From Thermoproteota archaeon (GTDB lineage: Archaea; Korarchaeota; Korarchaeia; Korarchaeales; Korarchaeaceae), in the NCBI GenBank assembly GCA_027491415.1, contig JAOZFH010000007.1, positions 1 to 64,000 on the forward strand: 64,000 nucleotides of DNA. The letters are read 5' to 3'. The translations under genes and the position numbers were made by a program. Shown here one piece after another: positions 31,428-34,420 of the stretch; the stretch's first letter is position 1, and each line of letters opens with the position of its first letter. The notes beneath the pieces were generated by a model. That model made no database searches, had not been told where the DNA came from, and worked only from the letters and a program-made list of their open reading frames with translations.

Positions 31428-31901
31428 TTAGGCGCTCACCAACGTTCTCCTCAGCTCCTCTATGCCCTCTCCGGTGTTGGCACTCACCAGAATCACTTCG
31501 TCTGCCCCCAGCTCGGCGGCGACGCGCCGGACTTCCTCCAAGTCCACTCTCATGCCGAGGTCGACCTTGTTCCCGACCAGCAGGATCCTCGCGTCGCTGG
31601 CGCCAGACACGGTGGCCCACTCGCGCAGGGAGTACAGCGTGCTCGGACGGCTCACGTCAAACACAAGGAGGACCATGCTGGCGCCCCTCCCCATCCCCTC
31701 GATGACCGGCCTGAACCTGTCCTGCCCCGCGAAGTCAAACACCACTAGCTTCACGTTCCCTTCCCTCACCGTGAAGAACTCGACCCCGACCGTCATCCTA
31801 GTGTCCTCGGTGTACCTGCCTGTGAGCCTCTTGGCCAGGGTCGTCTTCCCAACCCCGCTGTTTCCGGCGAGGACGACCTTCTTTTTGACTATCCCGGACA
31901 T
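31428..31901 (-). CDS. Rab/Ras-like small GTPase
   Basis: G1 GNSGVGKT, G2 TVGVEF, G3 DFAGQDRF, G4 GNKVD, G5 SAN; ATG at 31901 directly after the upstream stop. Confidence 0.9.
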   Translation of the reverse strand: MSGIVKKKVVLAGNSGVGKTTLAKRLTGRYTEDTRMTVGVEFFTVREGNVKLVVFDFAGQDRFRPVIEGMGRGASMVLLVFDVSRPSTLYSLREWATVSGASDARILLVGNKVDLGMRVDLEEVRRVAAELGADEVILVSANTGEGIEELRRTLVSA

Positions 31902-31902
31902 G

Positions 31903-32955
31903 TTATTCCCTCCTGCTGGCTCTGAGAAGCACAACCCCCCTCCCCTTGATCAGCTCCCGCGAGCGATAGCCGGATAGCTTTAGAGCGTACTCGAGCTCAC
32001 CCCTCGTGGGTGGGAGCGAGCCCCCGAGGAGGGCATAGGGGATACCTATAACCTGTGAGTCCCCTTCCCGCAGGGCCTGGAGGAGAAACAGGGGAGCCTC
32101 TTCGGCTAGAACTCCATCGAGCGACTTTAAGAGGGCCTCAAAGCCGGCCCCAGCCCACTGAACCGCGTCTATGAGAACGGCAGCGTCGGCCTGTCCCTCC
32201 ACCAGACCCGGGCTCGATCGTACCTTCTGCCCAAAAGATTCTAGGTCGGACTCTACCAGCCGGAGCCTGCCGGCCTCTGGCGCCCTCAGCGTTGACACTA
32301 CGAGCCGCGCCGCCCGCAGGTCTCCGGGGGGAACACCCGCGACGATCTTGGCTCCGATGAGCCTCAGGGCGTCGACCGCCACCATCCCGATACCGGACCA
32401 GGGGAGGAGCACGGTCGCCGGTATGAGCCCCACGTCGGCCCATCTCCTTATGAGCTGAGCGTCCGTCATCCCCATCCCGAGGAGCGCGAGCGCGGACTGG
32501 AATCTAGCTACGGGGTTGTCGTACATCGCCAGCGTGGCCAACCTCCTCGTCTCGCGATCCAGCTTCGGTTGGGCTCCGGATATGAGGAGATCGGGAAGGG
32601 CCTCGAATGCAGACCTAAGGGAGCGCATGATCCGGTCCACCCAGGGAACCGTCTCTGGCGGCGGAGTGAGATCTAGAAACCTGCTAACTCTCCCGCCGAC
32701 AAGTCGGACGTATCCTCCCCTTGCCATGGCCTCTACCACGGCCTCCATTAGCTCGGGATAGGCCGAGACCTCCTTGAGCTTGGAGAGGCTAACCCCCTCC
32801 ATTCGCCTAGCGAGGCCGGACGCATAGAGGGCACGATAGCACTCGTATCCCAGGGACTTCACCAGGCTGTCGTGCCCGACCGCCAGCTCCGTCGGCTCAA
32901 TCCCCGCGTACTCGAAGGCCCTCGCCTCAACGAGCTCAGGGGCGGCCCCCGTCAT
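31903..32955 (-). CDS. Uncharacterised protein, degenerate class I methyltransferase-like fold (paralogue A)
   Basis: LAMYDNP, VLLPWSGIG, DAVQW, LLGGSLPPT shared with the upstream paralogue. Confidence 0.65.
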   Translation of the reverse strand: MTGAAPELVEARAFEYAGIEPTELAVGHDSLVKSLGYECYRALYASGLARRMEGVSLSKLKEVSAYPELMEAVVEAMARGGYVRLVGGRVSRFLDLTPPPETVPWVDRIMRSLRSAFEALPDLLISGAQPKLDRETRRLATLAMYDNPVARFQSALALLGMGMTDAQLIRRWADVGLIPATVLLPWSGIGMVAVDALRLIGAKIVAGVPPGDLRAARLVVSTLRAPEAGRLRLVESDLESFGQKVRSSPGLVEGQADAAVLIDAVQWAGAGFEALLKSLDGVLAEEAPLFLLQALREGDSQVIGIPYALLGGSLPPTRGELEYALKLSGYRSRELIKGRGVVLLRASRRE

Positions 32956-32971
32956 CAGGGACCCATACAGG

Positions 32972-33994
32972 CTACCTCACCCCCGTGGTCACCTCCAGTG
33001 CCACCGCGCTGCCCGTCCTCGATATGACCCTCCACCCCACGCCCGCCCCCCTGAGGGACCTCTCCAGTTCCTCCCAAGTGGGAAGCAGGTTACCCCCGAG
33101 CAGCCGACCCAATATAACCATTGGGAGGCTCTCACTCGATCTCAGCGTCTGAAGAATGTAGACCCGCCCCCCTGACCTCACTCCGGTCACGGCCGATCGC
33201 ACCGCGGCCTCTGGAGATGAAGACCACTGAATCGCGTTCAGGAGCAGGGCTGCTTCTGGAGGGGTCCCAGTTCCCTCCACCTGCTTCAGGCACTCCAGTC
33301 CGGCCACCTCCGGCCCGGCCGAGAAGACTGTGATCGTGCCGCCCTCGTAGACCCCCCTCGTCCTGAGCGCCAGCCTGACCACCCTCTCCAGCCCGGGTGG
33401 AGCCGCGGCCATGATCCTTACGTCGCCCAGGATGGATCTGAGTGAGAAGACGTACTCTCCGAGTCCAGACCAGGGGAGCAGGAGGGCACCGATGTCGGCC
33501 CCCAACCCGAAACCTTCCACGGCGAGCCCCGTCTCTAGGAGCGTGAGTGGGTTGTCGTACATCGCCAGCGTGTGCGCGGGGTCTTGGGAAGGTTTCATCC
33601 CCGACCTGACATCTTCCGCGAGCTGGCTGAACCTATCCTCCAGTCCGGTGAGGGCTCTCTTCAGCCACCAAATTGACAGAGTGGGCCTGTCAGGCTCAGC
33701 CTCAAAGGAGAATATATCTTCGTACGACCTCAGCACGTCAGCGTCGAGGAGTAGATCGAGGATGGCGTCCAGAAGGGCTGGGTTCCTAACCGATCGGCGT
33801 ATCCTTCGCCTGTAGCTTCCCTCTATCTCCTTAAGGAGCCCGGAGTCGGATAGAGCCGCGTAGATCCAGTATACAACGTAGCTCCTGAGTTCCCTGGAGG
33901 CCGCCCTCACCTCCCTCTTGTCCAGCCCGGCGTGTCGGAGCGCGGAGGAGTAAGTCCCCCTCCCGAACAGTCCCTGCGTGTAGAGGGCGAACAA
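32972..33994 (-). CDS. Uncharacterised protein, degenerate class I methyltransferase-like fold (paralogue B)
   Basis: LAMYDNP, LLLPWSGLG, NAIQW, VRSGGRVYILQ (LKPGG-like), LLGGNLLPT. Confidence 0.65.
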   Translation of the reverse strand: MFALYTQGLFGRGTYSSALRHAGLDKREVRAASRELRSYVVYWIYAALSDSGLLKEIEGSYRRRIRRSVRNPALLDAILDLLLDADVLRSYEDIFSFEAEPDRPTLSIWWLKRALTGLEDRFSQLAEDVRSGMKPSQDPAHTLAMYDNPLTLLETGLAVEGFGLGADIGALLLPWSGLGEYVFSLRSILGDVRIMAAAPPGLERVVRLALRTRGVYEGGTITVFSAGPEVAGLECLKQVEGTGTPPEAALLLNAIQWSSSPEAAVRSAVTGVRSGGRVYILQTLRSSESLPMVILGRLLGGNLLPTWEELERSLRGAGVGWRVISRTGSAVALEVTTGVR

Positions 33995-34009
33995 CGGGAC
34001 TCCCTCTGG

Positions 34010-34348
34010 TCAGGTCGCGGCGCGCGCCTTCCTCCTCACCACGCCGAGCTCCTCCAAGAGCATTAGGACGTCTATGTCCTCAGAGCTAGGCCTGACCCTT
34101 CCGGAGAGGAGCGCCCTCACCCTGTCCATGTCGACCCAAGAGGGCGCCAGCGGAGCCCTCTCCTGAATCAGCTCGAAACCCACCTTGGAGAAGACAGACT
34201 CAGCCACGTCCACCTCTCTCACCATGCCGCCGCTCACCCAGATGACGAGGTCGTGATCCTCCCCACACGGCAAGAAGAACCTCCCGTCTGGGTGATCAGG
34301 GGGAATCTCGTGGACCCTCCCGCACTTGGGGCACCGGACCCTGCGCAA
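34010..34348 (-). CDS. Small putative Zn-ribbon protein
   Basis: CPKC...CGEDH metal-ligand pattern; first gene of a tightly spaced operon. Confidence 0.65.
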   Translation of the reverse strand: MRRVRCPKCGRVHEIPPDHPDGRFFLPCGEDHDLVIWVSGGMVREVDVAESVFSKVGFELIQERAPLAPSWVDMDRVRALLSGRVRPSSEDIDVLMLLEELGVVRRKARAAT

Positions 34349-34420
34349 ACCGACCCCCCCGGGGCTCTTGGGGATCTCAAGAGGTCTACATAATAACGTC
34401 TCAGGGTTGCGAGTCAGCCG

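Follow-up and report, generated by a model that had tools for sequence, protein, structure and literature searches.

The closest resemblance to the eukaryotic Rabs among prokaryotic proteins is shown by archaeal Rab-like GTPases, whose regulators have been hard to assign; Asgard GTPases, according to PMC10933270, are seldom found in operons with regulators of their own. Two-component systems were found in none of the complete crenarchaeal and korarchaeal genomes surveyed in PMC5847659, which makes it a question how these archaea relay signals. A compact case is provided by a four-gene operon in a 64,000-nucleotide stretch of the genome of a Thermoproteota archaeon of the Korarchaeaceae (GenBank assembly GCA_027491415.1, contig JAOZFH010000007.1, positions 1 to 64,000; hereafter, the window), in which a Rab-like small GTPase is encoded together with a predicted zinc protein and two degenerate methyltransferase-fold paralogues. 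What are these three partners, and what might they do for the GTPase? Here, we report a comparative analysis of this locus indicating that this variant of the prokaryotic small-GTPase operon, which includes two uncharacterized partner families, is real and conserved and has apparently not been published. The operon consists of the following features:

34390..34404, minus strand: TATA-like element GAGACGTTATTATG, candidate operon promoter, 5' of the zinc-protein gene
34010..34348, minus strand: zinc protein, 112 amino acids (aa), start TTG; predicted adaptor, first gene
32972..33994, minus strand: pseudo-methyltransferase 1, 340 aa, start TTG; O-methyltransferase-type fold inferred from the family
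31903..32955, minus strand: pseudo-methyltransferase 2, 350 aa, start ATG; tandem paralogue of pseudo-methyltransferase 1
31428..31901, minus strand: Rab-like (Rup-type) small GTPase, 157 aa, start ATG, 1 nucleotide past the upstream stop

An earlier note on this DNA, made from the sequence alone, had described four minus-strand genes with short gaps and no roadblock gene among them. The open reading frame (ORF) coordinates agree: the four genes are co-oriented, with intergenic gaps of 15, 16 and 1 nucleotides in the order from the zinc protein to the GTPase. No roadblock gene is recognizable at the locus, and the three in the same genome lie on other contigs.

The arrangement is conserved in relatives of the source genome (G000). 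Using the 350-aa protein as the query, matches were found in 6 of the 40 genomes of the class, including all four congeners (G005-G008). All four genes stand in the same order in G005, G007 and G008; in G006, the two methyltransferase genes and the GTPase gene are present, and the contig ends inside the first paralogue. A second operon, with a zinc, a single methyltransferase and a GTPase gene, is found in G000, G005, G007 and G008, and the two operon types separate in the trees of the zinc proteins, the GTPases and the methyltransferases. The same triplet is present in G009 and G020, which belong to other korarchaeal genera. In the source genome, the methyltransferase of the second operon (G000:C6:54553-56544, L003) retains GxGxG and LHW, not the two acids. 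Near this operon, on the opposite strand, lies a dual-specificity-phosphatase-like gene (HCLAGRGRSG) that is also found in G006 and G008.

Outside Korarchaeia, a Thermoproteales genome (G043) has a cluster of V4R-like, MglA-type, roadblock, V4R-like, zinc, intact methyltransferase and Rab-like GTPase genes. In the class of this genome, the zinc profile matches in 44 of 120 genomes and the methyltransferase profile in 19 of 120; in a sample of the phylum, matches were obtained in 29 of 401 genomes, all from that class. Alternative gene orders are GTPase-zinc-methyltransferase (G117, G119 and G120, the copies in G117 and G119 appearing frameshifted) and zinc-methyltransferase-roadblock-GTPase (G079 and G080). 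The gene module recurs in two lineages, the Korarchaeia and the Thermoproteales-containing class.

Altogether, 25 pairs of short zinc and methyltransferase genes were seen, two of them cut by contig ends; 16 of the 23 readable pairs have a Rab-like GTPase gene either next to them or separated by a single roadblock gene, and three gene orders occur among them. A reverse test started from 40 Rab-like matches in the class of G043, 30 of which came with loci. Within 1.5 kb, a zinc neighbor was present at 24/30 of these loci and a methyltransferase neighbor at 23/30 (14/20 and 13/20, respectively, after removal of the 10 seeds of the GTPase alignment). The chance expectation for a zinc-domain neighbor is about 0.008 per 3.5 kb, the zinc profiles matching four ORFs in all of G000. 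Among the 21 control loci examined, out of 35 lower-scoring korarchaeal GTPase matches (Arf-like, longin-linked and others), none had a zinc or methyltransferase neighbor. The expectation that homologues of the partners are linked to small GTPases in other genomes is thus borne out by the 16 pairs, with their several gene orders, and by the empty controls. Two further elements of the earlier note hold for the window and not for the module at large. The module is stand-alone and free of roadblock genes at this locus, whereas sister modules include roadblock and V4R-like genes and an MglA-type GTPase; and the set of two methyltransferases is present here, whereas elsewhere a single methyltransferase gene is usual, and its motifs are in some cases intact.

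Two observations were made around the related modules. In six genomes, operons of the form roadblock-GTPase-long zinc-short methyltransferase run head-on into a gene for an MglA-type GTPase (L098, L101, L206-L209). In three genomes of the G043 class, type IV pilin-like and accessory genes, named by eye, adjoin zinc-domain modules (L034:7438-12032; L042; L054), which hints at a connection with pili.

The GTPase itself was compared with known families in several ways. It is a single Ras-superfamily domain with eukaryote-like motifs (G1 GNSGVGKT, G2 Thr37, G3 DFAGQ with Asp56 and the catalytic Gln60, G4 NKVD, G5 SAN) that matches the Pfam family Ras with 88 bits (E=6e-25). In the PDB search, all 60 sequences shown are of the Rab/Ypt/Sec4 type (a few titled merely 'GTP-binding protein'), with Rab14 as the best match (E=1.4e-19). 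Of the segments in the positions of the RabF1-F5 motifs, VGVEF and LVFDVS agree well with Rab14, and KLVVF, RFRPVI and MGRGA only partly. The G motifs and the Pfam and PDB matches agree with the earlier description of intact G1-G5 and Rab-like segments. The C-terminal Cys is missing, as had been described, and there is indeed no Cys anywhere in the protein, which also has no tail, the chain stopping after the last helix; the hallmark of eukaryotic Rab prenylation, a C-terminal Cys with a hypervariable tail, is not present. Compared with the congeners, the ratio of nonsynonymous to synonymous substitution rates (dN/dS) is 0-0.13, with 81% identity to G007 and 73% to G008.

MglA-type GTPases, which the earlier note had used for comparison, turn out to be the wrong yardstick. 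Under the criterion that separates Rup from MglA, a conserved Asp in G3 (PMC4316618), the DFAGQ motif classifies the protein as Rup-type, that is, Rab-like, a class not expected beside roadblock genes. The neighboring MglA-type GTPases of related modules read GTPGQ or STPGQ in G3, and in the GTPase tree they stand apart at 89/80 support, with a forced union with the window clade not rejected (p-AU 0.151).

The zinc protein comprises an N-terminal beta domain with a CxxC...C-x3-H signature (residues about 1-50) and a small helix-turn-helix (HTH)-like C-terminal domain (about 57-107). Its AlphaFold2 model (pLDDT 85, pTM 0.52) has a five-stranded N-terminal domain and a small helical C-terminal domain. 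The likely zinc ligands, Cys6, Cys9, Cys28 and His32, all lie on the N-terminal domain, and Cys6, Cys9 and His32 are invariant in all 15 aligned relatives. With identities of 94% to G007 and 86% to G008 and a dN/dS of 0.035-0.049, it is the most constrained of the four genes at depth. Among its relatives there are short, winged-helix and long forms, the last of about 265 aa. Neither the fold searches nor Pfam gave anything at E<=0.001; the best fold matches, LysW (Z 4.1) and Ebp1 (Z 4.2), are weak, so that the fold is neither named nor shown to be new. The Atlas returned no result for the window proteins or for P0005. For a zinc relative (P0021), it gave no feature match at 0.9, and the structure rows (TM 0.46-0.51) are Promethearchaeota clusters, which we take as a lead only. 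Locus scans with single zinc proteins as queries gave 1 and 2 loci. In several genomes, a protein of about 101 aa with the same zinc domain is encoded, in the absence of a GTPase gene, directly 5' of a conserved gene of >440 aa (L049, L050, L053, L057-L059, L066).

The two middle proteins are 29% identical over 323 columns (E=1e-24), which makes them paralogues, and neither has a Pfam or NCBIfam family above the curated cut-off. Both align over their full length with relatives from the same slot that are clear class I methyltransferases. When the AlphaFold2 model of a relative (L015; pLDDT 84) was compared with known structures, dimeric small-molecule O/N/C-methyltransferases matched it (Foldseek E about 1e-12, TM about 0.5). 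An N-terminal dimerization part and a Rossmann fold are apparent at the family level, in this model and in the Atlas structure rows for L035, and from these two relatives an O-methyltransferase-type fold can be predicted for the window's pair. In such enzymes, the beta1 Asp and the beta2 acid anchor S-adenosylmethionine (SAM), and the LHW His is the catalytic base. Both paralogues have lost all three: motif I reads LLPWSGLG in pseudo-methyltransferase 1 and LLPWSGIG in pseudo-methyltransferase 2, with Leu replacing the beta1 Asp and Trp the first Gly of the D/E-x-G-x-G motif; the beta2 acid is gone; and LHW has become IQW and VQW, respectively, with Gln replacing the His. The pair of degenerate methyltransferase-fold paralogues that had been read from the sequence is therefore confirmed. 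Of 31 aligned rows of the family, 8 have intact SAM motifs. In the others, the motifs are degenerate, differently by clade, with the window's pair as the extreme case; such varied, clade-specific decay is expected if catalysis is dispensable.

Loss of function motifs could mean loss of function altogether, with the two copies being decaying duplicates and their arrangement accidental. The copies do diverge faster than their neighbors, being 46-52% identical to those of G008, versus 73% for the GTPase and 86% for the zinc protein. However, their frames are open, and dN/dS in all three congener comparisons is 0.18-0.24 for the first copy and 0.12-0.23 for the second (dS being near saturation with G007 and G008), which points to purifying selection on both; moreover, both copies are retained in all four congeners. 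Selection and synteny thus largely refute this explanation, for which hardly any likelihood is left. In a quick tree of 33 rows, the two paralogues are sister clades with a support of 100, and the pair appears as a tandem duplication observed in this genus only. The 350-aa protein has a 99%-identical copy that carries the label Candidatus Korarchaeota.

Could the proteins instead be enzymes with an unusual active site that methylate the GTPase or the zinc protein, so that methylation controls the switch? PWS, YDNP and QW are invariant in all 14 window-type rows, an indication that this region is still constrained, and intact members of the family adjoin the GTPase. Nevertheless, in the fold search the top matches were small-molecule methyltransferases, whose acceptor pocket is buried; the window's pair has lost both SAM-anchoring acids; and at the C-terminus of the GTPase there is neither a Cys nor a tail that could be modified. 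We regard protein methylation as very unlikely.

The slot between the zinc and GTPase genes is not reserved for methyltransferases. A zinc/winged-helix gene is followed by a V4R-like and then a GTPase gene in G009 and G075, so that a V4R-like protein fills the methyltransferase slot; V4R/TRAPPC3 folds have been proposed as ligand binders (PMC10933270). The G3 motif is mostly DxGGE in GTPases encoded beside long-zinc or V4R genes, versus DxxGQ beside short-zinc/methyltransferase pairs, a split suggesting that catalytic help differs between the two module types.

We tentatively propose that the window encodes a soluble module in which the zinc adaptor couples a catalytically dead methyltransferase-fold heterodimer to a Rab-like GTPase switch, and we put the likelihood of this reading at slightly short of even. 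The two paralogues would dimerize through their N-terminal helical/winged-helix parts, as the fold class does; a heterodimer is plausible because the O-methyltransferase fold is dimeric. The dimer would then bind a small metabolite and change shape. In the intact relatives, the ligand would be SAM or S-adenosylhomocysteine, and in the window's pair more likely something else, bound in the acceptor pocket. Finally, the zinc protein would relay the ligand signal to the GTPase; the most likely way is promotion of nucleotide exchange, which we favor because the GTPase retains its own catalytic Gln. The zinc protein seems the likeliest direct partner of the GTPase because it is common to all module types and the most conserved. 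Sensing or scaffolding appears to fit the middle slot better than catalysis, given that two unrelated dimeric, pocket-bearing folds occupy it and catalytic residues are often lost. The module is probably cytoplasmic since there is no lipid anchor and no membrane protein in the operon; none of the four proteins has a clear transmembrane segment (top 19-residue hydropathy, 1.67).

The signal could also run in the opposite direction, with the methyltransferase-fold protein as the effector (either a small-molecule methyltransferase or, in the window, a dead scaffold descended from such an enzyme) that the GTP-bound GTPase switches on or off via the zinc protein. This is a lesser though serious possibility: the SAM motifs and LHW are intact in the GTPase-linked members of G020, G043, G079 and G080, the fold is that of small-molecule O/N/C-methyltransferases, and the operon has no other candidate output gene. 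Against it, both GTPase-linked operons of the genus have degenerate copies under purifying selection, and the V4R-like gene of G009 and G075 takes the same slot.

Several points weigh against coupling of a sensor to the GTPase as we propose it. The genomes are related and the profiles derive in part from module loci, so that the linkage counts serve as description only. No GTPase gene is found near 7 of the 23 readable zinc-methyltransferase pairs, and at least 8 close and 9 distant members of the methyltransferase family have no adjoining zinc gene; this family therefore has a life outside the module. The eight rows with intact SAM motifs may be real enzymes, and SAM sensing by the window's pair is doubtful because both SAM-anchoring acids are lost and Trp stands at the first Gly. 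Zinc-V4R pairs are also found without a GTPase, and the V4R match (E=2.5e-4) is below the Pfam cut-off. A link between the zinc protein and DUF742, and thereby with a GEF (guanine nucleotide exchange factor), is weak: a DUF742 match was obtained for 2 of 28 aligned zinc proteins, below the cut-off and not including the window's. For the C-terminus of the window's protein, homology with the DUF742-like winged helix found in its cousins could not be established: a profile comparison of the window-type zinc C-terminus with DUF742-matching zinc proteins gave a probability of 1.8%.

The zinc protein and the methyltransferase might form a self-contained pair, like EarA and the adjacent fam methyltransferase, with the GTPase merely co-regulated. 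The zinc-methyltransferase adjacency is tighter than the link to the GTPase, as the seven GTPase-less pairs attest, and the Atlas features of an intact relative best match an archaeal cluster of 365-aa methyltransferases that is most frequent in Methanobacteriota and has the size of the methanococcal arCOG05058 proteins reported beside EarA-family regulators (PMC4858521, PMC10117864). Yet the linkage persists across three gene orders and divergent GTPase clades, and the EarA-like gene of the source genome has no methyltransferase neighbor. Five of the seven GTPase-less pairs are in G089-G092, and each of these genomes holds, elsewhere, a roadblock-GTPase-long zinc-short methyltransferase operon whose short methyltransferase is homologous to the family (hhalign 98.4%). 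A self-contained pair is accordingly a distinctly improbable account.

The proposed coupling of sensor, adaptor and switch can be extended, with considerable speculation, to a modular cytoplasmic G-protein pathway of archaea without two-component systems, in which a swappable metabolite sensor (a pseudo-methyltransferase dimer or V4R) and a new family of zinc-domain exchange factors would control Rab-like GTPases, the same zinc domain serving Asgard Rab-like GTPases as well. We consider this extension unlikely in its full form; if true, the zinc domain would be an archaeal GEF of ancient origin that has gone undescribed, and the sensor would parallel SAMTOR in prokaryotes.

As to the surroundings of the operon, the TATA-like element upstream of the zinc gene recurs unchanged in G005 and G007 and in similar form in G008, with flanks diverged in G007 and G008, and is a candidate for the operon promoter. 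A scan of the locus found no terminator-like site at the operon. The flanking genes for indolepyruvate oxidoreductase, a DUF84 NTPase and an ABC transporter were not counted as module members because they are in the opposite orientation or differ between module types. PADLOC models gave two short P-loop matches for the GTPase and none for the three partner proteins.

Several other GTPase loci came to attention. In G009 (C4, about 328300-331200; L032/L117), a co-oriented gene for a geranylgeranyl-reductase-like flavin-dependent (FAD) oxidoreductase, named by eye, is located directly 5' of genes for a zinc/winged-helix protein, a V4R-like protein and a Rab-like GTPase; in G008 (L033) and in G000 (C6:29116-31620), these genes occur as a set of three that lacks the GTPase, and the zinc gene of G000 seems to have no in-frame CxxC start. 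Archaeal lipid-biosynthesis enzymes have been proposed as relatives of the Rab escort protein and GDP dissociation inhibitor (REP/GDI) family (PMC4915359). Elsewhere in the source genome, a roadblock, a V4R-like and an MglA-type GTPase gene form a run (G000:C55:7041-8754). Another of its runs (G000:C6:40416-45091) comprises, as named by eye, a membrane protein, a longin-like ORF and a Rab-like GTPase that is extended at its N-terminus; a transporter and a KaiC-like double ATPase come next. In many korarchaeal genomes, a GTPase of roughly 300 aa with an Arf-like N-terminal domain is encoded, often just 3' of a roadblock-like gene (L176-L189, L202).

No description of this module was found in the literature searched, which left out most subscription journals, and the partner set can to that extent be called undescribed, as had been supposed. 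Its suggested relevance to the origin of eukaryote-like GTPase switches is indirect, as close relatives were found only in Korarchaeia and one class of Thermoproteota. With this module, small soluble proteins that belong together become available for assays of exchange, hydrolysis and ligand binding, by which regulators of Rab-like GTPases become testable, and the methyltransferase family is a natural series from an intact enzyme to a conserved pseudo-enzyme.

How does the module compare with known systems? Like DtpM (8rdn), PhzM (2ip2), ASMT (4a6d) and MppJ-type methyltransferases, the window's pair consists of proteins of ~340 aa, with a helical N-terminal part with a wing and a class I Rossmann domain predicted from the model of L015; unlike them, it has no DxGxG, beta2 acid or LHW His and is encoded in a GTPase operon rather than in a biosynthetic cluster. 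The nearest published gene pair is arCOG05058/fam beside EarA (PMC4858521, PMC10117864, PMC10665913). These archaeal SAM-dependent proteins, as described there, are of similar size, have an N-terminal dimerization domain and are tied to a small regulator gene, as the window's methyltransferases are to the zinc gene. Their partner, however, is a transcription activator of Thermococci and Methanococci, no GTPase is part of the pair, and the window locus has no EarA neighbor; homology of the window family with arCOG05058 is a lead only, from the Atlas match. The EarA-family gene of the source genome (G000:C1:46557-46901, L256) is above the Pfam cut-off and lies behind an HTH-like gene.

SAMTOR, a methyltransferase-fold protein with an altered GxGxG that still binds SAM and signals to small GTPases (PMC10883374), resembles the family in its helical N-terminal domain, its altered motif and the predicted role as a sensor upstream of small GTPases. 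It acts on mTORC1 via GATOR1-KICSTOR and binds SAM, which is doubtful for the window's pair, and the parallel is a functional analogy only. The actinobacterial conservon (CvnA-D/MfpE-B; PMC4316618, PMC11343762) is likewise a compact set of a small GTPase, a small HTH-like partner and a sensor, and roadblock proteins are common to it and some sister modules; its small DUF742 protein MfpC is reported to be a GEF (PMC11343762). The conservon GTPase is of the MglA family, versus Rab-like here, and the window locus has no counterpart of its histidine-kinase-like sensor, membrane protein, roadblock or DUF742 protein. The GTPase itself finds its closest likeness in the archaeal Rup/Rab-like proteins (PMC4316618, PMC4915359), which are single domains with the G3 Asp and Gln and Rab-like segments and likewise lack the C-terminal Cys and hypervariable tail, tail-less archaeal Rab-like proteins having been described in PMC4915359. 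For archaeal Group 2 Rup, PMC4316618 found no conserved neighbors, and its supplement shows no partner for Tpen_0080 and Kcr_0908, which are entered there as unclassified Rup. Unlike these published Rup proteins, the window-type GTPase has defined, conserved partners.

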